Shown: positions 52,724 through 64,000 of the stretch, piece by piece
How positions within the stretch are numbered: position 1 is the stretch's first letter
Layout: every line of letters starts with the position of its first letter
From: Minisyncoccota bacterium
GTDB taxonomy: Bacteria > Patescibacteriota > Minisyncoccia > Phycocordibacterales > GCA-2401445
Assembly: GCA_040879725.1 (NCBI GenBank)
Contig: JBBDJV010000018.1
Coordinates: 16,748 to 80,747 of the forward strand
DNA length: 64,000 nt
Direction of reading: 5' to 3'
Notes under the pieces: model-generated
Told to the model about the DNA's origin: nothing
The model's input: the letters and a program-made list of their open reading frames with translations, nothing else
Database searches by the model: none
Program-made: the position numbers and the translations under genes

Positions 52724-52794
52724 TGCCGGTTCGTCTAATGGTAGGACACGCCCCTCTGGAGGGTGTAATTGGGGTTCGAGTCCCTGACCGGCAG
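52724..52794 (+). tRNA. tRNA-Gln (anticodon CTG)
   Basis: Acceptor TGCCGGT/ACCGGCA with a U1:A72 pair as in bacterial tRNA-Gln, D-arm GTC-TAATGGTAG-GAC, anticodon stem CGCCC/GGGTG with loop CTCTGGA, T-arm TGGGG-TTCGAGT-CCCTG, discriminator G. CCA is not encoded. Track ORF 52561-53022 spanning it is spurious. Confidence 0.85.
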
Positions 52795-52845
52795 CTAGAG
52801 CAGTTTCGGCTTCGGTGCGAAGCGCCGAAACGCAACTGGTCTTTG

Positions 52846-53129
52846 CCGTCAGGGACTCGAACCGAGGGCGCGCGAAGCCGGACAACGTCCGAGCGCCCGA
52901 GTGGGGGTCGAGCGAATGAGGTTTTTATGAGTACGCAGGACGAAATAAAAACCCATGAGAGTGACCGAGTCCCTGACCTAAAAGATTTGGGTTTCCAAGT
53001 ATCTGTTCGGCAGACATCTTGAGCTTGTCGAAAGAGAAATAAAAAACTTAGTAACTCGTGACCGAGTCCCTGACCAGAAGATTAAGAACGAGAAGTTTAC
53101 CCTGAGCTTACCGAAGGGAGTCCCTGACC
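52846..53129. repeat. GC-rich block with one inverted and three direct partial copies of the tRNA-Gln 3' end
   Basis: Inverted copy CCGTCAGGGACTCGAACC at 52846-52863. Direct copies GTGACCGAGTCCCTGACC at 52961-52978 and 53058-53075, and GAGTCCCTGACC at 53118-53129. Also a nested hairpin GTTTCGGC-ttcggtgcgaagc-GCCGAAAC at ~52804-52832. Confidence 0.7.
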
Positions 53130-53233
53130 GTCAACCAGTTCGCGCAAACTCGAAGAGTATGGCGGTCTCATGTGTTCAAAGAGGGCTGTAGGAAACTGCT
53201 TCAATAAGTTGTATTATTTGCGATATAATAAAA

Positions 53234-53658
53234 TTATGAGATTAATTCAAAAAACACTTCTTATTTCGACTGGACTTTTTGTGGTTGTTGTTATTGGTCT
53301 TCTTGTTTATTTTGAAAATAATAAAGAGTTCGAGCCAACAATATCTATAGATGATGTCGAGATAAGAAACGAGTACCTAAAATTAAGGGAGTTTCCTTAT
53401 TGGACTTTTGTTGGAGAAGCAAAAAATAATTCCTCCACTACTGTAGACTCTCTATCCTTTAAGATTAGGGCCTATGATTGCCCGACCGATACAGTAGGAC
53501 CTGATTGTGAAATTATTGGTGAGGAAGTTGTGAACACATATGTAACTATACCAGAAGGACAGGTAAGGCGTTTTGTAGATATGGTAACTTTTACTGATAT
53601 GCCAGTGCCCAAGAACGAATTTAAATGGGCATATGAACTTATTAATATTGGGCTCTAA
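53234..53658 (+). CDS. Membrane-anchored hypothetical protein
   Basis: Start taken at MRLIQKTLLISTGLFVVVVIGLLVY; no domain recognised. Confidence 0.45.
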
Positions 53659-53670
53659 TAATTCTTTACC

Positions 53671-53898
53671 ATGAAATCTAAAAGACTATTTATCTTTATC
53701 ATAATCAGTATTTTGTTAATTATGACAGGCGTTATTTATTTTAGAGAACCAGCTGTAGATAACTCATCAGATGATTTTGACCCATCAATTTATTTTGAGG
53801 GTGAACCAGTAACTCAAGAGGAGATAGACAGCGTTCTTTCTCCAGAAGAACAACAAGAGATTGAGCGAATTTACAATGAAACAAATGTATCCGAGTAA
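53671..53898 (+). CDS. Small membrane-anchored acidic protein
   Basis: 75 aa with an N-terminal TM. Confidence 0.4.
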   Translation: MKSKRLFIFIIISILLIMTGVIYFREPAVDNSSDDFDPSIYFEGEPVTQEEIDSVLSPEEQQEIERIYNETNVSE

Positions 53899-53909
53899 AC
53901 CTTTGTGTT

Positions 53910-54182
53910 ATGGCCTTAGATATAAATAGAATTACAGAGCAGTATAATTTCTCAGAAAACGAAAAGAAAATCATGAGTGATTCGGGAACAGCTAATACTG
54001 CTGCCATGAATCAATCGCGCATAGTTTCTGAGTTTATTTTGGCAAAGAAAATTGATATAGCTACAGATAGAATGATTGAGTCTAACAAAAAATTGTCGGA
54101 GTCTAATGAGAAATATTCTAAGGCGATGCTGTATCTCACTGGTGCGTTAGTATTTGTAGGAATTGTTCAGATTTTCTTTTAG
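53910..54182 (+). CDS. Small tail-anchored hypothetical protein
   Basis: 90 aa with a C-terminal TM. Confidence 0.4.
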   Translation: MALDINRITEQYNFSENEKKIMSDSGTANTAAMNQSRIVSEFILAKKIDIATDRMIESNKKLSESNEKYSKAMLYLTGALVFVGIVQIFF

Positions 54183-54251
54183 GTATTGGTTCTTGCAAGT
54201 ATTTAATACTAGGTGAGATTGCTTTATTATTTAATTCAATAAAATAAATAC

Positions 54252-54770
54252 ATGAGAGTAGCAATCGGCACAACAAGTGAACTAAAAATTAGATCTTTAG
54301 AGAATGCTTTGTATAAACTCCAAATTAAAGCGGAGATACACTCTATAAAAACAGACTCTGGTGTTTCTAATCAACCATTTGGTTATAAAGAAACTACCCA
54401 AGGTGCGAAAAATAGAGCAAAGCATGCACTTGAGAGTGATAGTTTCGATATTGGTTTTGGTATTGAAAATGGACTTATTGAAATAGAAGGAAACTTTTTT
54501 GATATTGCCTGTGTTTGTATAAAAACAAAAGAAGGAGAAGAATCTATATCATACAGCTCAGGATATTTCACTCCACAATGGATTGTAGAAGAGATAAAAG
54601 AGAAACACACTGATTATGGACACATAACACAGAGATTATCTGGTGACACAGACAAAGATCCAATCAAATATTTTTCTGGAGGAAAAGTTAAAAGAGAGGA
54701 ATTGTTATCACAGGCAATAGAAATTGCTCTGATAAAAATACTTAATAAGGCTAGGTATGCAAAACAATGA
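54252..54770 (+). CDS. Inosine/xanthosine triphosphatase (YjjX / DUF84, Maf-Ham1 superfamily)
   Basis: MRVAIGTT...SGVSNQPFGYKETTQGAKNRAKHA parallels E. coli YjjX [24 protein letters not shown]. Confidence 0.8.
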   Translation: MRVAIGTTSELKIRSLENALYKLQIKAEIHSIKTDSGVSNQPFGYKETTQGAKNRAKHALESDSFDIGFGIENGLIEIEGNFFDIACVCIKTKEGEESISYSSGYFTPQWIVEEIKEKHTDYGHITQRLSGDTDKDPIKYFSGGKVKREELLSQAIEIALIKILNKARYAKQ

Positions 54771-54868
54771 AAATGAAACACAAAAAATTTACCCCCCCCT
54801 TTTTGAAATTAAAAGTTGCCAACCCAACTCCCCTATACTACACTTAGAAATATAAATAATTTCGTTAT

Positions 54869-55105
54869 ATGGATCTGGATATTTTATTCAATATATTTCC
54901 AAGAATTTTCGCAGTAATAGTTATTGGAGTTATTTTTTTCCTCATCTTTCGAGAACTTGTGACGTGGTATTGGAAATTAAACAGAATAATTGAGTTATTA
55001 GAAGAAATAAAAGAAAACACGAGACCGAAAGAAAAAAACCCTCCTAACACTGAGTTAGATAACGATACTCCCACTGATACCAAGACTAAGCAAAAATGGT
55101 GGTAA
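54869..55105 (+). CDS. Small membrane protein
   Basis: 78 aa, one TM and a Lys/Glu-rich tail. Confidence 0.35.
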   Translation: MDLDILFNIFPRIFAVIVIGVIFFLIFRELVTWYWKLNRIIELLEEIKENTRPKEKNPPNTELDNDTPTDTKTKQKWW

Positions 55106-55175
55106 GCACATCTTTTGAGATATCGCTTCTATTATAGAAAACATTCAACTAAGCTACTCGTGCTAAAATTCAAGC

Positions 55176-55916
55176 ATGGAAAGATATACGAAATTCAAAA
55201 CAAAAGACGATCATGTTATTTATGGGATTTTAAATACTTCAAATAGAAGCTCAGAAACGCTCGCTATTTTTGTTCACGGGCTAACAGGACACCCAAATGA
55301 ACACACCTTTTTCAACGCTTCACGTCTGTTTCCCAAAAAAGGAATAGATGTTTTTCGTTTTTATCTTTACGCTGGGGAAAAAGGAGGACGGAAACTAAGT
55401 GAATGTACTATTGCAACCCACGCAAAAGATTTAGACACGGTAATTTCACATTTTAGAAAAAAATATAAAACTATCGCGGTCATTGGTCATAGTTTAGGTG
55501 GTCCGACTATTCTTAAATCGGATTTTTTAAGAGTAGATAACATCATCTTGTGGGATCCGTCCTGTCACACTCAGAGTAAAAAATATCTGCCCAAAAAAGT
55601 AAGAATGGATAATCGAGAGGTGTGTATAGACGAATGGGGAACGGAATTTTTAGTTAATCCAAAAATGTTTGAGGAATTGTTTTGGTTTAATGGAAAAAAC
55701 GAAATCGATCTGATACGAAAGATACGTGTTCCATTCAAAGTTATTGTTGCAGGTAAAACAGCATCCTTAAACAAAGGAGGTAAAATATATTGCGATAATG
55801 CAAATGGACCAAAAGAGCTTGTGGTAATCAAAAAAGCCGGACACACTTTCGATGAAGAAGGAGTTGAAGAAAATCTTTTGAGTGAAACCTTGAGCTGGAT
55901 AAAGAAATATTCTTAA
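55176..55916 (+). CDS. Alpha/beta hydrolase (esterase/lipase-like)
   Basis: GHSLGG nucleophile elbow and GHTFDEE near the C-terminus. Confidence 0.7.
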   Translation: MERYTKFKTKDDHVIYGILNTSNRSSETLAIFVHGLTGHPNEHTFFNASRLFPKKGIDVFRFYLYAGEKGGRKLSECTIATHAKDLDTVISHFRKKYKTIAVIGHSLGGPTILKSDFLRVDNIILWDPSCHTQSKKYLPKKVRMDNREVCIDEWGTEFLVNPKMFEELFWFNGKNEIDLIRKIRVPFKVIVAGKTASLNKGGKIYCDNANGPKELVVIKKAGHTFDEEGVEENLLSETLSWIKKYS

Positions 55917-56093
55917 CACCTTCCTCTTTACCATTTCCCTTACTCCCCTAGTTTTTTAGATAGGTATCTATGCCCCAAAGCTGGGAATTTTAAGATGTGC
56001 TGACAACACCGTTGTAATATATTTATCCCATGAACGTCTTGTATATATAGGTACGTAGGTACGGAAAATTATTATTATTAAAAAAACATAGAT

Positions 56094-56225
56094 ATGCTTT
56101 GGACAATTACAATAATACTCCTTATTTTGTGGCTTCTCGGTTTCAGCTTCAATGTAGGTGGAAATCTTATTCATACACTCTTGGTAATAGCGCTCATTTT
56201 GTTTATCGTGCGGCTACTAACATAA
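56094..56225 (+). CDS. lmo0937-family small hydrophobic protein (43 aa)
   Basis: MLWTITIILLILWLLGFSFNVGGNLIHTLLVIALILFIVRLLT matches the conserved lmo0937 family pattern (MLWTI..ILLILWLLG...GG.LIH.LLV). Below the track's length cutoff. Confidence 0.7.
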   Translation: MLWTITIILLILWLLGFSFNVGGNLIHTLLVIALILFIVRLLT

Positions 56226-56281
56226 GAATGCGTACAAAGAATAATTAGTTGAAACAATAATTACAATAATACAAAAAACAT

Positions 56282-56641
56282 ATGGACTCTTACAATTCAC
56301 ACTCAACAAAACCAATCTACCGAGGCACACAAATTGTGTGGTATGTACTTGGTTTTCTGGAAATTCTCTTAGCCTTTAGATTTATACTTAAAGCAATGGG
56401 GGCAAACGCAACTGCTGGTTTTTCAAATTTCATTTATACAGTGACCTCATTCTTCACCGCCCCATTTTCAGCTGTTTTTGGAACAAGTGGCACTCAAGGA
56501 AACATCTTTGAATGGACAACTCTTTTGGCAATGCTCGTCTATTGGGTTATCGCCATCGGTATCATCCGCATCTTCCTTATGAGCAGGTCTGTGTCTACGA
56601 GAGAAGCTGCCACAAACCTCGACAATGGAGATACTGTCTAA
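56282..56641 (+). CDS. YggT-like membrane protein
   Basis: 119 aa, two TMs with the inter-helix pattern LEILLAFRFILKAMGAN. Confidence 0.4.
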   Translation: MDSYNSHSTKPIYRGTQIVWYVLGFLEILLAFRFILKAMGANATAGFSNFIYTVTSFFTAPFSAVFGTSGTQGNIFEWTTLLAMLVYWVIAIGIIRIFLMSRSVSTREAATNLDNGDTV

Positions 56642-56745
56642 GGTACTTCTGTACATTTGGTTATAAAGTCAGATGTTGTGATACTCTATAGGTACAAAAT
56701 ACTTCGACCCGACTCTGTCGAAAGGCAGAGGTAACAAGAAAAATT

Positions 56746-56772
56746 CAAGGTAACAACACCTTGATTTTTTTT
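56746..56772 (+). terminator. Intrinsic terminator
   Basis: CAAGGtaacaacaCCTTG followed by ATTTTTTTT. Confidence 0.6.
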
Positions 56773-56981
56773 GTTAGGGTAGCAAAGTCTTTTTACTTAC
56801 ATTAATTTCGAGCTTGTGACTCAGGCGTCTTGCATCTAGCGGAATAAATTGTACTTAGAGAAAGAGCAGTCTTCCCCTTTTCCTCTTCCTTGGTCGCCTA
56901 AAATCCTTCAGGAAGATATCGGGATGTTCAGGTAAGTAGCGGTGTATACTATACAAATGGTGAACGGTATTCTACAAAAAT

Positions 56982-57836
56982 ATGATAAGTAAGAAATTAC
57001 TCCTGAGTATTGGAGGATTCATAGTATTTATTGGTATTTTAATTACATCAGGTAGTCAGTCTAAATTCGTTGTGACTGAAGTTCCTAACGAAAGTATTAA
57101 AGAAGATTCTATGTCTGAACCTGTTACAGAAGTAGAGATCGCACAATCTGTAGAGCAAAAAGAGACCGCCCAAGAAACAGAAGTAAAAAAGGAAGAAACA
57201 TACAAGGTTATAAAAGTTGTTGATGGAGATACGTTGGCGGTTAGCATTGAGGGTATTTCAACAACCATACGCCTTATCGGACTAGACACACCAGAGACGG
57301 TAGATCCAAGAAAACCCGTACAGTGCTTTGGAGTTGAAGCATCAAATAAAGCAAAGGAGTTGCTTACCGGTCAGAATGTAAAACTAGAGTATGATACTTC
57401 TCAGGGAACGTATGACAAATACGATAGATTACTTACGTACGTATACTTACCCGACGGAAGGTTATTTAATAAACTCATGATTGCTGAGGGGTACGGATAT
57501 GAATACACCTATGCTATTCCATACAAATATCAAAAGGAGTTTAAGGAAGCTGAGTTATTCGCACAAGAAAACAAAAAAGGACTGTGGGCGGAGGGTGTTT
57601 GTGAAGAGGAGACTTTAGAGGTATCACCCCCTACCCCAGCCCAAGCACAAGAGACTTCAGGTAGTTCATATGGCGAAGAGTATACCTGCTCATCAAATGC
57701 ATACAATTGCACAGATTTTTCTACACACAGCGAAGCACAACATGTCTACCAACTATGTGGAGGAATAACTAATGATATTCACAGACTTGACCGAGACAAA
57801 GATGGTGATGCGTGTGAAAGCTTACCGCAATTCTGA
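56982..57836 (+). CDS. Secreted thermonuclease (SNase/micrococcal nuclease family) fused to C-terminal Excalibur Ca-binding domain
   Basis: Signal anchor; SNase core (VIKVVDGDTLAV...IRLIGLDTPET...YDRLLTYVYLPDGRLFNKLMIAEGYGY); Excalibur CTDFSTHSEAQHVYQLCGG...DRDKDGDACESL. Confidence 0.85.
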   Translation: MISKKLLLSIGGFIVFIGILITSGSQSKFVVTEVPNESIKEDSMSEPVTEVEIAQSVEQKETAQETEVKKEETYKVIKVVDGDTLAVSIEGISTTIRLIGLDTPETVDPRKPVQCFGVEASNKAKELLTGQNVKLEYDTSQGTYDKYDRLLTYVYLPDGRLFNKLMIAEGYGYEYTYAIPYKYQKEFKEAELFAQENKKGLWAEGVCEEETLEVSPPTPAQAQETSGSSYGEEYTCSSNAYNCTDFSTHSEAQHVYQLCGGITNDIHRLDRDKDGDACESLPQF

Positions 57837-57910
57837 AATTCAAAAGAAAATGGAACCAACAGAAATTACCTAGGTACAAAAACCTGGTAAAAAGATATAA
57901 TCATTAGGTA

Positions 57911-58609
57911 ATGTCTGAAGAACACTCAAAGCAGAAAAAATCAGAACTTTACTCGGCACTAGTTTGGATACTCGGTGGTTTATCTCTGGTTGCGTATTGT
58001 ATCATTGGACTTTTAAATGCTTCGATTCCCGGAGTCGAAGACCTTGTCACTTTTTTATCTACAGTAGAAGGAAAGCATATATACGTTGCTGCATTTATTT
58101 CAATTTTTGTTGAGGGACTTTATTTTATCGGAAGTTTCTTTCCTGGATCAACATTGGTTGTTATTCTCGTGGTCCTTTCTCAACTAGGAGGAATACCAGT
58201 ATTTATTGGAACAATTCTCGCTGTTTTTACAGGATGGTGCGTTGCGGGTATTGTTAATATTTGGCTAGCAAAAACATATCGTTTAAAGATTGCCCGTCTT
58301 CAAGAAAATGATACATATAAAATTAAGGATAATTTACCAACAACATGGTTCCCTGCATTCCGAGCAAACTACGAAGTAGCGCAGATAACTTATGGCGGAA
58401 ACCCATTTAAAGTCTTTCTTTCTTCAGTCCGAGTAAAACTCTGGTCCACTCTCGTTGCAACACTATGTATTCTTAGCATCTCATTATTTATAAGTATTGA
58501 AGATATAAGCAATGAAGAAGGATTTGCTACAGTTATACTGGTTGCGATAATTAATTTTATAGTTGGTGGCGTTAAGTTAAAAAACTATTTTAGAGATACG
58601 AATACCTAA
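57911..58609 (+). CDS. DedA/VTT-domain-like membrane protein
   Basis: IYVAAFISIFVEGLYFIGSFFPGSTLVVILVVLSQLGG resembles the VTT/DedA core. Confidence 0.45.
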   Translation: MSEEHSKQKKSELYSALVWILGGLSLVAYCIIGLLNASIPGVEDLVTFLSTVEGKHIYVAAFISIFVEGLYFIGSFFPGSTLVVILVVLSQLGGIPVFIGTILAVFTGWCVAGIVNIWLAKTYRLKIARLQENDTYKIKDNLPTTWFPAFRANYEVAQITYGGNPFKVFLSSVRVKLWSTLVATLCILSISLFISIEDISNEEGFATVILVAIINFIVGGVKLKNYFRDTNT

Positions 58610-58721
58610 ACTCACTTCTTCATCAATTTTCTTTTGTATGTATTCTAGTGAATGAAAATAATTTTTCCAAAGAAAAAGGACCCAACCGCAGAGCTGGGTC
58701 CTTGTAAGCAAGATTCCTGTG

Positions 58722-60395
58722 TTAAGGAACTTGTTGAATTCGATAAAATCGTTTTGACTCTCCGATTCCTGTAACATCAAAATATAACTGAGGGTTTGTC
58801 TCAATGGTGACAATAGCCAACGTATGCCACGCACCTTCCTCACTCAAGACATCCTTGTATTCAACAGCACACCGTGAACCGATTGCGCCATAAATGACGA
58901 CAGATGGTGTCATTGTCATGTCCGCAACAAGCGTTGTGTTGGGTGGTCCATCTCCCACAAAAAACGTTTGTGGTATTGTTGGTCTGCTGTAGAGACTTTG
59001 ATCTCGAAGCATTACCCGCCACTGATAGGCGCCACTTGGTAAGGGTGTCTGCGTGGTGAACTCTGCGGTATCGCCGGATTCATACGCAACTTTATTCCAC
59101 CCTGTAAATGTTTCAACATGATCAAACGTATGACTGACTGTTTTGAAACCGTCGGTACTCAGCTCAATACGTGGTGACAATACATCTGCACGCTCATCAA
59201 GCGTAGCACTTAAATCAAGCATGCTGAAACTAAAAGCTACTGTTCCGTTTGGAAGTGTTTCTCCTACAACAGGTGTAATAAGACTTTCAACCTTGGGGAT
59301 ATAATCGCGATACACACTTCCTTTTCCTCCGTTTTGTGTATTCAGATATCCTCCTTTCTTTCCACCCGTAGAACTTGTACGCTCATCGAGATTGCCCATC
59401 GTTGCATTTCCATAGAACACCTTGATTGCTCCACCTCCACCCCCGCCCCCATGGTAACCTCCATCTCCACCATTCGCAGAGAGTGTGCCACTAATGGAAA
59501 TATTGGCACTTCGCAAGAGAACAGTACCACCAGCTCCTCCGCCGTGTGAACTATTTACTCCATCCCGTCCATCGGCGCTGATAGTTCCATTCACAGTAAG
59601 TGAATATTCTGCTTCAATCAGTATCCCAGCACCACCGTTACTAAGACCAGATCTTCTACCACTGGCGCCACCCATGTACGCTTCGTACGTAAATGGCGAA
59701 CCAAAGGACTGACCTCTGTTTACACCACTAGATGAAGTCCAATACCCACGGCCCCCGGTACCAATATGCCCACCAGCAGAAGCGCTTGTATACCAATCAT
59801 TCCCTTGCCCCCGCAGGTCATTACCTGCACCTAAGCCATCGATAATGCCTCCCTCTTCAATGAGTACATTGTTTGCAAGGATAGTTACTGTCCCTGATTG
59901 TGGAAGGTTGCCATCCACGCGATGTACCCGGAGTTTCCCTTCATTAATAACTGTTAGGTTGTTGATATTCCAAAAACCCAGCACAACCAACTCTCCTCCA
60001 ACTATCGTAAGTGGAGCAAAGTTATTTGTTCCGAGGACAGTACTGACACCGCCAGCAATGGTGAGTCGCTCGCAGTTGAGATTACCTGAAACTAAAAGAG
60101 CGCCATCAACATCCAATGTAGCGGACTGTATATTTTCACGTACAGTTAGTGCTCCATTCGTCTCAAGGTAAATTTCCTGAGCTTCTAGCGTACCATCAAT
60201 GATAAGCGAACCGCTGTTTTTAACCAGTACCATCCGGTATGTTCCTCCTGGAATGGTTGTAGTAACTCCATCAATGACGAGATCATCGTCAGCATGTGCT
60301 ACCTGTATGCTGAATACAAGCGTTACTATCGTAAGCATCAAGATGCTTTGAGTTAACCTTCTGGCAAGTAGCCAGTCATTATTTTTTGTTTGCAT
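58722..60395 (-). CDS. Secreted beta-helix/Gly-rich repeat surface protein
   Basis: Signal peptide, repeated G-rich beta-helix-like segments (GGAGGTVLLRSANISISGTLSANGGDGG...) and a C-terminal Ig-like region. Confidence 0.5.
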   Translation of the reverse strand: MQTKNNDWLLARRLTQSILMLTIVTLVFSIQVAHADDDLVIDGVTTTIPGGTYRMVLVKNSGSLIIDGTLEAQEIYLETNGALTVRENIQSATLDVDGALLVSGNLNCERLTIAGGVSTVLGTNNFAPLTIVGGELVVLGFWNINNLTVINEGKLRVHRVDGNLPQSGTVTILANNVLIEEGGIIDGLGAGNDLRGQGNDWYTSASAGGHIGTGGRGYWTSSSGVNRGQSFGSPFTYEAYMGGASGRRSGLSNGGAGILIEAEYSLTVNGTISADGRDGVNSSHGGGAGGTVLLRSANISISGTLSANGGDGGYHGGGGGGGAIKVFYGNATMGNLDERTSSTGGKKGGYLNTQNGGKGSVYRDYIPKVESLITPVVGETLPNGTVAFSFSMLDLSATLDERADVLSPRIELSTDGFKTVSHTFDHVETFTGWNKVAYESGDTAEFTTQTPLPSGAYQWRVMLRDQSLYSRPTIPQTFFVGDGPPNTTLVADMTMTPSVVIYGAIGSRCAVEYKDVLSEEGAWHTLAIVTIETNPQLYFDVTGIGESKRFYRIQQVP

Positions 60396-60815
60396 TTTGT
60401 CCTTTCAATGAACTATCGTTCTTGTTGTTGTTTTTAGAGGAATCCTCTACCTAAACATCATATTCCATATTTTTTACGAATATGTCAATACTCATAGCTA
60501 GAGTACCATTCAATCCGATTTCGAGGATGAATCACGATAAAAAGCTACCTTGTAAAATAACAGCCCCGTACCTAAGGTACGGGGCTGTTATTATTCATGC
60601 TGTTTAACCTATTAAACTATAATTTTTTGCAACTTCTTTTAGTTTCAACCCCTAAAAATAGCAAAACTTAACATCCATAAGAATGCCTTTGTATTAAACT
60701 GATTTTCTGCTATGGTGTTTATTAGGGTCGATTTATTTCGACAGGCTAATGTGTTGCCTTAAAACATAATTTTGGACTTTGAAAAGATATAAAAAAATAA
60801 AAGAAGGAGGTTGCA

Positions 60816-61817
60816 ATGATTAGAGCACTTATTGTTTCCAGCTTGAGCGAACGCTATTACTACGATGCATTTGTGGAAGAATCCAAAAAACTTGGTGTTG
60901 AAATAGTTATTCTAGATCCAGAATATTTTATTTCTCAGAATCATACACTGGATATCCATCTTGACTCGGTCAATCTTTCTGGAAAAATTGAAGTAATTGA
61001 ACTTGGCAACGACAAGAATAAAACAAAACTTGTTGATATTAATACCATAAAGGTAGCGTGGTATCTACGTGTAAAACGAACACTCCGTACATCTGAAATC
61101 GATAATGTTGAAAAACGATTCAAATGGAGCGAAACTTTGTGGTCACTTGACTCTCTCCTTCACCTACTTCCCTGCAAATGGATAAATACTCTTGATGATA
61201 TCGAGCGTCTAAACTGCAACAAATTACTACAACAAATGCACGCGGCACGCGCTGGCTTAGCAACACCCAGAACCTCTGTCAGTAACTCACCAGAGTCAGT
61301 AATTGGTTTTTGCGCAAAACACAGTAACCGACTACTACTCAAATTAATTGGATATACCAAACTTGATCCAAACGACATGATGGTGGTTTACTCAGAACTA
61401 TTTGAACTAAATGAATTAAAAGGAAGCGCAGACTCAATCCATTATTGTCCTATATTCGCACAAGAATACATATCAAAACAATACGAATACCGAGTAATGG
61501 TAATTGGAGACGAAGTACACGCGTGTCGTATTGACTCTCAGGCGAGTAAAAAAACTCAAATTGATTGGAGGCACTATGATTTTGAAAATGTTGCACACAC
61601 AAAAGCAGATTTACCGCCAGAAATATCAATGCAATTGATCACCCTAATGAATTCACTTGGACTCAAGTATGGTGCAATAGATATGATAGAAACGCCTGGT
61701 GACGATTTTGTTTTTCTTGAAGTTAATCCATCAGGTCAATGGGATTGGATTGCTAAACTCAGCGGTCTACCTATCGCAAGAAGTGTTGCACGTATGTTAA
61801 AAAAATCTGCAACCTAG
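60816..61817 (+). CDS. ATP-grasp ribosomal peptide maturase, MvdD/MvdC (microviridin/graspetide) type
   Basis: C-terminal ...IDWRHYDF...LKYGAIDMIETPGDDFVFLEVNPSGQWDWI matches the MvdD-family signature (DWR...YGAIDMIxTPD..Y.FLEINPxGEFxW). The N-terminus MIRALIVSS and VAWYLR also fit. Strong RBS AAGGAGG 7 nt upstream. Confidence 0.8.
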   Translation: MIRALIVSSLSERYYYDAFVEESKKLGVEIVILDPEYFISQNHTLDIHLDSVNLSGKIEVIELGNDKNKTKLVDINTIKVAWYLRVKRTLRTSEIDNVEKRFKWSETLWSLDSLLHLLPCKWINTLDDIERLNCNKLLQQMHAARAGLATPRTSVSNSPESVIGFCAKHSNRLLLKLIGYTKLDPNDMMVVYSELFELNELKGSADSIHYCPIFAQEYISKQYEYRVMVIGDEVHACRIDSQASKKTQIDWRHYDFENVAHTKADLPPEISMQLITLMNSLGLKYGAIDMIETPGDDFVFLEVNPSGQWDWIAKLSGLPIARSVARMLKKSAT

Positions 61818-61818
61818 A

Positions 61819-62340
61819 CTAAACATCAATCCTCGCCCTCGTGCGAGGATTTTCATTAAAAACTCCTTTTTTATATTCATCTAAAAGATGCTTTGCATAC
61901 TCTTTCTCAACCTCACCAACTTCAACTTCACTCCATTTGTGTGCACCATCTATATCATGATGCAATAACATATCAATCATGGGTGTAATTTTATTTGGAT
62001 GCGTAGGATACAGATATTGTAATGCTTTTTTACATAGTTCCCGAGCATGATTAAGATTATGCTTTTTCCAAATTGAAACTGTGGTGGCATGATGATGCCA
62101 CATCCATAATATATTTTGGACCGCCTTTCTCTCGTGTTTATCTAACTTATCAATATCAACTTCTAAAAGTGCATTCTTAATTTGATTAATTAATAATGAG
62201 TCATTATTCTCATCAAAAAAACCTTCTTTAATTGCTTTTTGCTCATGCTCCAACTGCAATTCATGAAGACCATATACATCTCCAACATTAAAATTATGAC
62301 ATACTCGCTCAAGAGATATTTGATCATTTTTCTTTTGCAT
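61819..62340 (-). CDS. His-rich hypothetical protein (possible metal-dependent hydrolase) downstream of candidate precursor
   Basis: Start taken at MQKKNDQ, after the terminator and a TATACT box. Contains WMWHHHATT and LLHHDIDGAHKW. Confidence 0.4.
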   Translation of the reverse strand: MQKKNDQISLERVCHNFNVGDVYGLHELQLEHEQKAIKEGFFDENNDSLLINQIKNALLEVDIDKLDKHERKAVQNILWMWHHHATTVSIWKKHNLNHARELCKKALQYLYPTHPNKITPMIDMLLHHDIDGAHKWSEVEVGEVEKEYAKHLLDEYKKGVFNENPRTRARIDV

Positions 62341-62351
62341 ATATTCTAGTA

Positions 62352-62387
62352 TAGCAATAAAAAAGAAGGGTTGTGACACCCTTCTTT
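62352..62387 (-). terminator. Intrinsic terminator between candidate precursor ORF and downstream gene
   Basis: Minus strand: AAGAAGGGTgtcacaACCCTTCTT followed by TTTTATTGC. Confidence 0.6.
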
Positions 62388-62401
62388 GATGAACTGAATA
62401 A

Positions 62402-62581
62402 TCAATCTCTCCGTGGAGCGGTTGGGTCATCGACTTGGTCATGCATCTCAGGAGAATTCCCTTGCGTTGTGACCACAGTCATATTTGCGACAATGTTTGG
62501 TACACTTGGACGAGCTCTCATACGCCGAAGTAACAACGGACCATTTTGAGGATTGATTTCTTCTACAGTATCTTCTTTCAT
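62402..62581 (-). CDS. Candidate graspetide precursor peptide (59 aa)
   Basis: GGAG 7 nt upstream of the ATG. Leader-like MKEDTVEEINPQNGPLLLRRMRARPSVPNIVANM and core-like TVVTTQGNSPEMHDQVDDPTAPRRD (Thr cluster followed by Asp/Glu). Intrinsic terminator immediately downstream. Confidence 0.4.
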   Translation of the reverse strand: MKEDTVEEINPQNGPLLLRRMRARPSVPNIVANMTVVTTQGNSPEMHDQVDDPTAPRRD

Positions 62582-62730
62582 AAACAAACTCCATGTAATA
62601 AGTTAAAACTCAGTACAACCTAATTAAAGAATACCATCTACGAATAAATTGCTCAAATACCTTATTACAGTATGGTATTATGCATAGATGCTCAATGCTG
62701 TACTATTTCTAAAAGCTAGCACAATACAAC

Positions 62731-63033
62731 ATGACTAAATACACCAAACTCGTACGTGACAAAATTCCTGAAATACTTGATGCGAAAAAAGTACCCTACA
62801 CAAAAAGAGTCGCGAATGAAACAGAGTACAAGGAAGCGCTAGTGGAAAAACTCCTCGAAGAAGTACGGGAATTCTCTCAAACTCCCACAGAAGAAGAACT
62901 CGCTGACGTGCTTGAAGTGGTGAATGCGCTCACAAAACTCCCCGAATATCGCGCAACGGAAACTGCACGAAAAATAAAACACGAAGAAAGAGGAGGTTTT
63001 GAAAAAAGAATAATTCTTTCCGGAGAAAAATAA
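62731..63033 (+). CDS. MazG-like all-alpha nucleoside triphosphate pyrophosphohydrolase
   Basis: YTKLVRDKIPEIL...EELADVLEVV is the typical small MazG/YpjD-type signature. Confidence 0.7.
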   Translation: MTKYTKLVRDKIPEILDAKKVPYTKRVANETEYKEALVEKLLEEVREFSQTPTEEELADVLEVVNALTKLPEYRATETARKIKHEERGGFEKRIILSGEK

Positions 63034-63065
63034 TACCGTACCAGGCATCGTACGGTATTATTTTT

Positions 63066-64000
63066 TTACTTCTTTGCTTTGAGTGAGGCTTTAATAAATG
63101 CGCTGAAAAGTGGGTGAGGATTAAGCGGATGCGCTTTGAATTCGGGATGAAATTGAGTTCCCAAGAAAAACGGATGCTTACTCTGTGGCAACTCGGCTAT
63201 TTCAACCAAGTACCCGTCTGGTGATGTGCCAGAAAATATAAGCCCTGCCTCTTCTATCTGTTTTCGGAATTCATTGTTTACCTCGTAGCGGTGTCGGTGA
63301 CGCTCAATCACTTCTTCTGTTTTATACGCTTTATGCGCCACTGTCCCCTTTAAGATTTTTGCCGGATAGGCACCAAGTCGCATGGTTCCGCCGTAACGCC
63401 CCTCTTCCACATGCTTTCTCTGATGCTCCATGATATCGATTACAAGGTTTTCTCCTTTTGGATTTATCTCACGAGTATTCGCATCCTTAATTCCTAAAAC
63501 ATTCCGTGCGTATTCAATAACCGCAAGTTGCATACCGTAGCATATTCCAAAATAAGGTATCTTCTGTTCTCGTGCATACTTAATAACATGCAACTTCCCT
63601 TCAATGCCTGTTTCTCCAAACCCACCAGGAACGAGAACTCCATCATATTTTTTAAGCTCAACCACCTTCTTTGGGTCTTTTTCAAACTGCTTCGAATCAA
63701 GCCAGTGAATAAGCGGAACCGCTCCTTGTTCGTACGCAGACATTTTAATCGCTTCAATAACTGAGATGTAAGCATCGGACAACACAAAGTCTCCTGAATC
63801 AAAGTATTTACCCACTATCGCGATATTTACTTCCTTCTTCGCGTTATTCATTTTCTTTACCATTCCCCGCCACTCAACTAAATCTTTCTTGCGTGGTTTT
63901 AAGCTAAGCGCATCTAGTACATGGTTTGAGAGACCGTCATTTTCAAAATTTACCGGCACTTCGTAAATACTTTTTATATCAGGAGCAGAAATTACGTGGT
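63066..64000 (-). CDS. pyrG: CTP synthase, C-terminal glutamine amidotransferase half (gene continues past window end)
   Basis: GICYGMQ catalytic Cys, HPEF, and overall PyrG GATase similarity; the N-terminal synthetase domain lies beyond 64000. Confidence 0.9.
   Translation of the reverse strand, partial: HVISAPDIKSIYEVPVNFENDGLSNHVLDALSLKPRKKDLVEWRGMVKKMNNAKKEVNIAIVGKYFDSGDFVLSDAYISVIEAIKMSAYEQGAVPLIHWLDSKQFEKDPKKVVELKKYDGVLVPGGFGETGIEGKLHVIKYAREQKIPYFGICYGMQLAVIEYARNVLGIKDANTREINPKGENLVIDIMEHQRKHVEEGRYGGTMRLGAYPAKILKGTVAHKAYKTEEVIERHRHRYEVNNEFRKQIEEAGLIFSGTSPDGYLVEIAELPQSKHPFFLGTQFHPEFKAHPLNPHPLFSAFIKASLKAKK

Follow-up and report, generated by a model that had tools for sequence, protein, structure and literature searches.

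The question raised by this locus is whether an ATP-grasp gene, a small open reading frame facing it and a neighbouring gene for a His-rich protein together encode a graspetide pathway. The window, by which we mean the whole 64,000-nucleotide stretch that was analysed, carries the three genes within ~1.8 kb: an ATP-grasp ligase on the plus strand and, on the minus strand, a 59-aa precursor and a 173-aa partner protein. The three genes very likely form a module for a graspetide (an omega-ester-containing RiPP) in a genome of Candidatus Paceibacterota (CPR/Patescibacteria), and the cluster very probably makes a small ring-locked peptide, as judged from sequence comparisons. The ATP-grasp gene, the 59-aa frame with its Shine-Dalgarno sequence, the terminator and the 173-aa gene that the earlier note had described are all present where it had placed them:

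60804-60810, plus strand: Shine-Dalgarno sequence AAGGAGG of the ATP-grasp gene, read from the sequence.
60816-61817, plus strand: predicted graspetide-type ATP-grasp macrocyclase of 333 aa (WDZ88_03875), with an ATG start; NCBIfam and PDB profile matches.
61819-62340, minus strand: His-rich, all-helical, TPR-like partner protein of 173 aa (WDZ88_03880), the next minus-strand gene after the precursor.
61828-61851, no strand assigned: hairpin where the ATP-grasp and 173-aa genes converge, likely a bidirectional terminator; terminator scan.
62362-62387, minus strand: intrinsic terminator or attenuator hairpin with a 10-bp stem and T-run, separating the precursor from the TPR-like gene and directly 3' of the precursor stop; terminator scan.
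62405-62581 (stop codon 62402-62404), minus strand: putative precursor peptide gene of 59 aa (WDZ88_03885), MKEDTVEEINPQNGPLLLRRMRARPSVPNIVANMTVVTTQGNSPEMHDQVDDPTAPRRD; also called by NCBI.
62426-62482, minus strand: predicted core, M34-D52, MTVVTTQGNSPEMHDQVDD; column conservation.
62522-62539, minus strand: putative leader recognition motif P15-L-L-L-R-R20; alignment of 20 precursors.
62589-62592, minus strand: GGAG Shine-Dalgarno sequence of the precursor, 7 nt 5' of its ATG, read from the sequence.

To which family the ligase belongs is answered consistently by two kinds of profile search. Among the NCBIfam models, MvdC (2e-54, residues 6-328), the SAV_5884 maturase (5e-53) and MvdD (4e-49) far outscored the RimK family (2e-16); the maturase models reached 167-185 bits, against 60.5 for the RimK family (cut-off 143.4), 38 for LysX and 24 for S6-glutamate ligase. 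The protein nevertheless reaches none of the curated cut-offs set for the NCBIfam maturase models, the MvdC/MvdD equivalog cut-offs included, and therefore forms a distinct subfamily rather than an equivalog of a characterised enzyme. A profile search of the PDB returned microviridin and chryseoviridin ligases over residues ~4-327 (MdnB 2e-47, MdnC 4e-45, CdnC 3e-42, with AMdnB also matched), whereas LysX reached 1e-4 and RimK structures were absent from the matches at E<=1e-3. K176, E224, D289, the E302-x-N304 pair and the DWRHYD motif are invariant in 20 family members, and EVNPSGQW is present; we take K176, E224, D289, E302 and N304 to be the ATP/Mg-binding residues of the ATP-grasp fold.

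These results bear directly on the possibility that the enzyme is a RimK/LysX-type amino-acid ligase that extends a protein C-terminus, with no RiPP cluster involved. The sole Pfam match of the ligase is indeed the generic RimK ATP-grasp domain PF08443 (2e-06), which it has in common with the RimK/LysX alpha-L-glutamate ligases, as it does the ATP-grasp fold, and JGI labels its homologues as 'glutathione synthase/RimK-type ligase-like'. This explanation is nonetheless extremely unlikely, given the margin of the maturase models, the PDB matches and an N-terminal pre-ATP-grasp region that aligns with MdnB/MdnC along its full length. The products of RimK/LysX enzymes are alpha-amide extensions of the backbone rather than side-chain rings, and these enzymes act without a leader-bearing precursor gene. 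A grouping of the ligase with the graspetide maturases rather than with RimK is strongly supported by the sequence comparison, in agreement with the MvdD-like assignment first proposed.

A chance origin of the 59-aa frame is ruled out because all 18 distinct related loci keep it next to the ligase, across ~42-63% ligase identity. The earlier note had staked its reading on the small frame and its T...D/E core being conserved in homologous loci, and both are found in all 18. Homologous precursors were recovered with HMM E-values of 3e-21 to 2e-27 against 15,706 six-frame ORFs, and a search of 1.84 billion representatives added 19 further called small homologues. Three long matches in the latter search were rejected as multi-stretch scores: P0375 and P0386 are tandem-repeat proteins unrelated to the precursor, and P0369 contains no matched stretch. 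Within the conserved blocks, differences at codon positions 1, 2 and 3 number 1320, 768 and 2693, and the invariant P, R, T and V residues are encoded by all of their synonymous codons. At the level of these alignments, the pattern shows purifying selection on the precursor as a protein. Most homologous precursors also have AAGGAG or GGAGG at an equal distance from the start codon.

The precursor is nearly always convergent with the ligase and lies <1 kb from the ligase 3' end, and some copies were missed by gene callers. A convergent arrangement of precursor and ligase is unusual for RiPP clusters, and the absence of a shared operon was counted against the graspetide reading. It also favours the idea that the ATP-grasp enzyme acts on another substrate, such as the TPR-like protein or a distant peptide, and that the small frame is functionally unrelated, all the more as precursors can lie far from the ligase in some CPR loci (PMC8939145). 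We regard this as very unlikely: only the small frame and a TPR-like protein accompany the ligase in 18/18 loci, the small frame has exactly the graspetide organisation of a leader followed by a Thr/acid core, and the flanking intergenic DNA contains no other conserved ORF or sequence. A precursor upstream of the ligase was considered and rejected, since the 420-bp intergenic region at 60396-60815 carries only short non-conserved ORFs; tblastx and blastn of this region against 88 related loci gave nothing significant.

The organisation of the peptide supports its role as the substrate of the graspetide module. The earlier note had seen a leader-like half followed by a Thr-rich and then Asp/Glu-rich core, and both parts proved to be conserved when homologous precursors were aligned. 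The leader follows the consensus (T/A)P(L/I/V)(L/M)L(R/T)R, with a conserved Pro (P25) five residues on. The core consensus, M-T-V-V-T-T-x-G-x-x-P-E-M-x-D-Q-x-x-D, contains three conserved hydroxyl and three invariant carboxyl residues, so that the candidate ester acceptors are T35 (invariant), T38 and T39 (T/S) and the candidate donors are the invariant E45, D48 and D52. It has no conserved Lys and no KYPSD motif.

In the proposed pathway, the product of the 59-aa gene would serve as the precursor, and its N-terminal leader (G/T-P-L-L-L-R-R...P, residues 14-25) would provide the docking site for the ATP-grasp ligase, much as PFFARFL in the leader of microviridin precursors does for MdnC. With ATP and Mg2+, the ligase would activate core carboxylates, of which E45, D48 and D52 are the candidates, as acyl phosphates, and the hydroxyls of T35, T38 and T39 would attack them to form an estimated two to three macrolactone rings, with a predicted loss of 18 Da for each. 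No lactam is expected, because the core has no conserved Lys and the locus has a single ATP-grasp gene. No single beta-hairpin register fits the spacing of the Thr and acidic residues, and the ring connectivity is consequently not predictable. The 173-aa protein would most likely be a peptide-binding accessory subunit that presents or holds the precursor or product, or that stabilises the ligase.

The layout of the locus is compatible with unequal expression of these components. The terminator that had been proposed after the precursor stands, with its 10-bp stem and T-run, and RNAfold predicts a strong GC-rich hairpin just 3' of the precursor stop, mostly followed by a T-run, in nearly all 18 loci. 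Since the precursor has its own Shine-Dalgarno sequence and a terminator behind it, more precursor than partner transcript would be expected. The terminator scan of 60300-63100 gave 7 sites, compared with 1.4 +/- 1.2 in shuffles, and an Rfam scan of 60300-62800 gave no match at gathering score. We found no leader peptidase, GG cleavage site or exporter linked to the window locus. The proposed accessory region starting from tRNA-Gln is not established: the stretch from 52.8 to 60.4 kb shows no integrase or mobile-element gene and no more than a slight dip in GC and a change of strand. A genomic island starting from the tRNA was left unsupported because the ORFs from 53 to 58 kb include neither an integrase nor a transposase. 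As a separate observation, the same module adjoins integrases in MAGs from outside the CPR.

What the third gene contributes is a harder question. The partner contains 14 His in 173 residues, and its family is marked by the motifs E-D-Q, W-x-W-(Y/H)-H-H-A and (H/N)-P-N-K-I-T, with D33, Q34, H83, H84, N116 and T119 as invariant polar residues. A 207-aa reading from 62442 was rejected as an over-extension because homologues and the NCBI annotation begin at the Met of the 173-aa protein. Pfam and NCBIfam searches with the 173-aa protein and the peptide gave no significant family, the only match being DUF7096 in one member, under the cut-off (E 0.004-0.006). None of the 120 listed homologues of the 173-aa protein has a precomputed Pfam domain, and none of 14 members of the family matched PF20329 (DUF6624) at E<=1. 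The predicted fold is a plain TPR-like helical repeat. Each of the 18 loci encodes one TPR-like helical protein: 12 have a member of the 173-aa family, 4 a DUF6624 relative and 2 a classical TPR protein. The 173-aa family and the DUF6624 relatives both have TPR-like folds, and their motifs line up in hhalign, though not significantly (probability 0.5% in one comparison, and 1.9% with E 0.027 in another); a distant kinship between them, on these models, may exist.

Because every locus carries one such protein, the distribution suggests that it is an obligatory peptide-binding partner. We tentatively extend this to a possible, though less than probable, proposal: that the TPR-like protein is an obligatory third component of the pathway, interchangeable in evolution across three families, and that it binds the leader or core as a subunit on which the ATP-grasp enzyme depends. 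If true, it would represent a new type of recognition or partner element for RiPPs, and DUF6624 and its like, found repeatedly among several graspetide groups, would gain a function; the integrase-adjacent modules of MAGs outside the CPR would in that case suggest that a self-contained three-gene cassette is exchanged between CPR and other bacteria, possibly including their hosts.

Two other roles for the partner were weighed against this proposal. The precursor and the TPR-like protein might form a peptide/receptor pair for signalling or for immunity and sequestration, in which the partner binds the finished product. This explanation overlaps with the main one and differs in the partner's role alone. 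It is unlikely, considering that the ~170-aa protein lacks a signal peptide and any domain for DNA binding, phosphatase activity or membrane insertion, that no exporter is available for a secreted signal, and that in three loci (L015, L016 and L018) the partner gene lies directly 5' of the ligase on the same strand. An enzymatic role for the 173-aa protein, for example as a leader peptidase, an esterase or some other tailoring enzyme working through the invariant His-His and Asp/Asn residues, is more doubtful still. The six invariant polar positions and the lack of any other peptidase in the locus would suit such a role, and both PMC8939145 and PMC13097080 speculate that cluster 23/DUF6624 proteins may be enzymes; however, the plain helical-repeat fold gave no hydrolase-fold match, and the protein is replaced elsewhere by classical TPR proteins that lack those motifs. 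An accessory, peptide-binding role for the partner is the reading that we carry forward.

The earlier note was wrong to consider graspetide clusters undescribed in CPR-like genomes. Two CPR branches of graspetide loci had been described computationally by Makarova et al. 2022 (Biol Direct 17:7; PMC8939145), whose supplement lists the window's precursor family as clusters 1871 and 4012. That study was the sole match in the literature on graspetides, RiPPs or ATP-grasp enzymes in Patescibacteria/CPR, where no experimental study was found. It defines a Branch-1 core, TxxxTx(6-10)Dx(1-4)D, and, for the leader, Phhx(1,2)h among residues 1-30. The window precursor matches the core signature (T35-VVT-T39, eight residues, D48, QVD, D52), while its leader, P15-L-L-L-R-R-M, reads P-h-h-x(3)-h and is one residue off the published motif; clusters 1871 and 4012, which the study counts as precursors all the same, have the same PLLLRR. 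The likeness to Branch 1 rests on this core signature, the available part of PMC8939145 giving no branch for clusters 1871 and 4012. The source genomes of the clusters, GW2011_GWF2_44_8b, GWA1_47_8 and GWA2_44_13, hold ligase matches P0095, P0081 and P0109, and these ligases are 45-47% identical to that of the window. PMC8939145 also reported neighbouring TPR-repeat and/or 'cluster 23' proteins, and TPR or TPR-like neighbours occur in all loci of the window clade; the description of cluster 23, with its conserved His and Arg, is matched better by the DUF6624 relatives, and the motifs of the 173-aa family did not appear in the available portion of the supplement text.

The locus is thus a solid new example of a class whose phylum association and precursor family had been predicted before, and no earlier view is overturned by it. 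CPR/Patescibacteria combine minimal genomes with a life attached to other microbes, so any dedicated secondary-metabolite cassette retained in them is a candidate for mediating this way of living, a point already made in PMC8939145. With its compact size, well-defined precursor and two to three predicted ester rings, the locus is a practical target for heterologous expression. The presence of a TPR-like protein from one of three families at every locus raises a testable hypothesis, and it fits the partner-dependent synthetases reported in 2026 (PMC13097080).

Comparison with known systems places the window locus most closely beside the CPR loci of PMC8939145, with which it shares the phylum-level group and similar neighbours (TPR proteins and an uncharacterised conserved family). 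Cluster 1871 (MTTTLADGMKINERTPLLLRRMEDKPEISSYPLASHMTVVTTPGMETEMHDQQEDANR) has the leader motif and core signature in common with the window precursor, and clusters 1871 and 4012 both align with it and both carry PLLLRR; at ~60-80% identity in the conserved blocks, the window precursor is a new, divergent member. PMC8939145 regards its Branch-1 precursor clusters as unlike one another; in the present alignment a single family covers the whole ligase clade. Many uncalled members, the convergent layout, the terminator and the universal TPR-like partner are added to the published description.

The ligases that act on the microviridin precursor MdnA (MdnC for the ester, MdnB for the amide; PDB 5IG9, 5IG8) are full-length homologues of the window enzyme, with profile E-values of 1e-45 to 1e-47. 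The leaders follow an analogous P-h-h-x-R-x-h pattern, PFFARFL in microviridin and PLLLRRM in the window, and Thr and Asp/Glu side chains, the ring partners in microviridin, are predicted to act likewise here. In contrast, microviridin clusters have two ligases (MdnB, MdnC) rather than one, a core of the TxKYPSDWEEY type with a Lys for the lactam, and a GNAT acetyltransferase and an ABC transporter that are absent from the window locus, which differs further in its convergent precursor and extra TPR-like protein.

Graspetide group 42 of Carter et al. 2026 (PMC13097080), defined with RODEO in Candidatus Komeilibacteria and associated with DUF6624, offers a second parallel from a CPR host. Its leader, KPLILDRLRQP, resembles GPLLLRRMRARP of the window, and both cores have TT-x-G...D...D, although the core sequence of group 42 (GFTTHGTPNDPDSGGTD) differs from the window's. 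Its cluster encodes a DUF6624 protein, as do 4 of the 18 related loci, where the window has the 173-aa family instead; strings of the window family did not appear in the supplements of PMC13097080, one of which was available in part. The same study reported that the synthetase of rosaritide (mir cluster) needs the PpiC-like protein MirC, which co-purifies with it, for activity and stability. MirC has a PPIase-like fold, unlike the TPR-like partner of the window, and dependence on the partner has been demonstrated for rosaritide and is hypothesised here; in both systems, a small non-ligase protein strictly co-occurs beside the graspetide synthetase.

The earlier note read this locus as a graspetide-type RiPP cluster, and the four features on which it drew (333-aa ORF, 59-aa ORF, terminator and His-rich 173-aa gene) are all present as described, the three genes, which come from a Candidatus Paceibacterota MAG, being annotated by NCBI as consecutive hypothetical proteins:

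60816-61817, + strand: ATP-grasp ORF of 333 aa (the ligase, WDZ88_03875), with AAGGAGG 6 nt upstream
62581-62405, - strand: small ORF of 59 aa (the precursor, WDZ88_03885), stop codon at 62404-62402, with GGAG 7 nt upstream of the ATG
62387-62362, - strand: intrinsic-terminator hairpin directly after the small-ORF stop
61819-62340, - strand: third gene, 173 aa with 14 His (WDZ88_03880), starting at the Met at 62340

The start of the third gene is supported by 14 homologues, which align from it, and by the NCBI annotation of 173 aa; a 207-aa ORF from 62442 was rejected as an over-extension.

The ligase had been assigned to the MvdD-like maturases and set apart from RimK, and this placement held, since clustering with RimK was not seen and maturase models and structures far outscored RimK. 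Pfam recognised only a generic RimK-type ATP-grasp domain (2e-06). Among the NCBIfam models, the best matches were MvdC (2e-54, 185 bits, residues 6-328), the SAV_5884-type maturase (5e-53), MvdD (4e-49) and grasp-with-spasm (6e-32), compared with 2e-16 (60 bits) for the RimK family, 1e-09 for LysX and 3e-05 for S6-glutamate ligase. Because every one of these scores falls below the equivalog cut-off, the ligase is, judged on its sequence, placed in a distinct subfamily, with no characterised enzyme as its orthologue. A profile built from 20 ligase-family members, when searched against solved structures, matched MdnB (2e-47), AMdnB (1e-45), MdnC (4e-45), CdnC (3e-42), an MvdD-like protein (3e-22), PsnB (1e-06) and LysX (1e-04), with no RimK structure among its matches. 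Every family member retains the nucleotide and Mg motifs (K176, E224, D289 and E302-x-N304) unchanged, together with DWRHYD and EVNPSGQW. Relatives in the databases number at least 239 and are nearly all from Patescibacteria.

The small ORF proved to be a conserved gene. Using the 59-aa peptide in tblastn, a homologue was found beside the ligase in all of the first three genomic contexts, two of which lacked a gene call at that place; a wider scan, limited to one genome per species, added 80 loci, and an HMM was iterated over all six-frame ORFs. The peptide was present in every one of the 18 distinct loci of the close clade (E 3e-21 to 2e-27), within which ligase identity is 42-63%, and its leader and T...D/E core were conserved throughout; the earlier note had proposed conservation of the small ORF and this core as a check. 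The leader follows (T/A)-P-(L/I/V)-(L/M)-L-(R/T)-R and has a Pro at the fifth residue beyond this motif; it is joined by a variable spacer of 10-30 residues to the core, (H/N)-(M/F)-T-(V/I/M)-V-(T/S)-(T/S)-x-G-x-x-P-E-M-x-D-Q-x-x-D. Residues P15, R20, T35, V37, E45, D48 and D52 are invariant, and positions 38 and 39 (T38 and T39 in the window peptide) are Thr or Ser in all members. This conservation acts at the protein level, because pairwise differences in the conserved blocks number 1320, 768 and 2693 at codon positions 1, 2 and 3, respectively, and all synonymous codons are in use for the invariant Pro, Arg, Thr and Val. Most homologues have a properly spaced AAGGAG or GGAGG before the ATG, and another 19 small homologues, 55-83 aa long, came from 1.84 billion representative proteins. 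Three long multi-stretch matches were also returned, of which the two inspected were spurious tandem-repeat proteins. The 420 bp preceding the ligase gene contain no conserved alternative precursor. Some members carry a tail after the core, TAPR(N/R)D (62405-62425 in the window) or TRYD(K/R)D, and others have none; these tails add Thr and Asp and might allow an extra ring. In at least two fetched loci, L004 (6615-6791, - strand) and L007 (6057-6266, - strand), the precursor has no gene call despite a good SD site and conservation, so published counts of the family are probably underestimates.

Precursor and ligase genes converge in 17 of the 18 loci, their stop codons lying 8-80 bp apart, or about 600-800 bp apart with one gene between; the sole exception is L016, in which the precursor lies upstream of the ligase and divergent from it. 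Genes beyond this module vary between loci, and no protease or exporter gene is linked to it. Around the locus, seven terminator-like sites were counted against 1.4 expected from shuffled sequence. In almost every one of the 18 loci the precursor stop is succeeded by a strong, GC-rich hairpin, in most cases with a T-run after it, regardless of whether the partner gene or the ligase gene's end comes next. This recurrence supports the earlier suggestion that transcription of the precursor is largely kept separate from that of the gene downstream. The 173-aa gene may be transcribed by terminator read-through or from a separate promoter. A promoter-like site at 62348-62377 (- strand) combines a -35 GTCACA within the terminator hairpin with an extended -10 TGcTATACT (62348-62356) ending 7 nt before the 173-aa ATG, which has no SD site, and this candidate could yield a leaderless mRNA; the evidence is weak, since consensus-level promoter matches are no commoner here than in shuffled sequence. 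Separately, a near-perfect 47-nt palindrome (60551-60597; 23-nt arms, 91% complementary, 1 nt apart) with the perfect core AACAGCCCCGTACCT-A-AGGTACGGGGCTGTT lies in the 420-bp divergent promoter region between the gene for a 557-aa protein and the ATP-grasp gene. It has no second copy in the window, is not conserved in related loci, and could serve as an operator for a dimeric regulator or form a hairpin.

Each of the 18 loci holds a ligase, a precursor and one TPR-like protein. The 173-aa family, which numbers at least 265 proteins, occurs in 12 of them; its 120 listed members are all without a Pfam domain and have locus tags next to those of the ligase. Its invariant residues include D33, Q34, W79, W81, H83, H84, N116 and T119, and the 173-aa protein matched Sec72 (10.2), LGN (9.6), the FKBP52 TPR (9.1), PlcR (8.7) and the Rap and AimR receptors (8.0-8.3). 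In three loci the family is duplicated, with paralogues on either side of the precursor:

L004, 6040-6528 and 6872-7420: paralogues with about 30% identity
L016, 765-1307 and 1660-2214: paralogues
L022, 987-1637 and 1849-2343: paralogues

In the six loci without this family, its place is taken by a classical TPR protein (L001 and L012) or there is a 175-200-aa protein (L014, L019, L021 and L023) whose wider family includes members with recognised domains of the uncharacterised DUF6624 family (PF20329). DQ, aromatic-His and D-x-K-x-A...K-A motifs line up between the 173-aa family and these DUF6624 relatives; a shared fold class is claimed and homology is not, because the profile-profile comparison was not significant (probability 1.9%, E 0.027). 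The structure model of one DUF6624 relative (L019, 3364-3909) has a predicted five-helix TPR-like repeat and a beta-hairpin, and in one database protein (P0358, 297 aa) classical TPR repeats and DUF6624 are fused in a single chain. The most likely role of the TPR-like protein is to bind the precursor or the product, or to stabilise the ligase; it may instead be an enzyme, or act as a receptor or in immunity.

Taken together, the ligase placement and the conserved precursor support the graspetide-type reading, and we consider it very likely that the ligase macrocyclises the 59-aa peptide. The MdnC/MdnB system of homologous ligases is the model for the proposed steps, and from this analogy we infer ring number, connectivity and every binding step. 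The ligase would bind the PLLLRR leader, activate E45, D48 and D52 by turning their side-chain carboxylates into acyl phosphates, and join these to T35, T38 and T39 in two or three macrolactone rings. With neither a conserved Lys nor a second ligase present, no lactam would be expected.

That an accessory region begins at tRNA-Gln is unproven: in the stretch 52724-60400, GC falls to 0.34 at 54-56 kb and the coding strand changes, with nothing further in favour of an island and no integrase or transposase. The stretch encodes a DUF84 NTPase, an alpha/beta hydrolase, a YGGT protein and a secreted SNase/Excalibur nuclease. The Gly-rich 557-aa protein (58722-60395, - strand), divergent from the ATP-grasp gene, has an N-terminal hydrophobic segment, no Pfam family and only a weak AgmC_N match (E 0.001), and it did not accompany the ligase in other loci. 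Elsewhere, in MAGs labelled Bryobacteraceae (L014, 2333-5848) and Alphaproteobacteria (L023, 1676-5216), a module of ligase, precursor and DUF6624-like protein directly adjoins a P4-type tyrosine integrase (Arm-DNA-bind_3 and Phage_integrase), L014 additionally carrying a ParB_N protein. The adjoining integrase and the module GC below that of the flanks (0.49 versus 0.57-0.63 in L023) suggest carriage on an integrative element outside CPR, the alternative being mis-binning.

The belief that graspetide clusters were undescribed in CPR-like genomes is refuted, because this precursor family had already been predicted: Makarova et al. 2022 (PMC8939145) reported such clusters from two branches that CPR bacteria form in the ATP-grasp tree, with a Branch 1 leader motif Phhx(1,2)h, a core signature TxxxTx(6-10)Dx(1-4)D, and TPR and 'cluster 23' proteins as frequent neighbours. 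Precursor clusters 1871 and 4012 of its supplement align plainly as the same family as the window peptide, and the ligases of their source genomes are among the database matches of the window ligase. Literature searches turned up no experimental work on CPR graspetides; the locus is thus a new member of a family predicted but not characterised, and its main appeal lies in the universal TPR-like partner and in a compact system as an experimental target. RODEO group 42 of Carter et al. 2026 (PMC13097080), from CPR bacteria and with DUF6624, has a related leader but a different core. That study also found DUF6624 recurring across several graspetide groups and described the first partner-protein-dependent graspetide synthetases, whose partner is PPIase-like.
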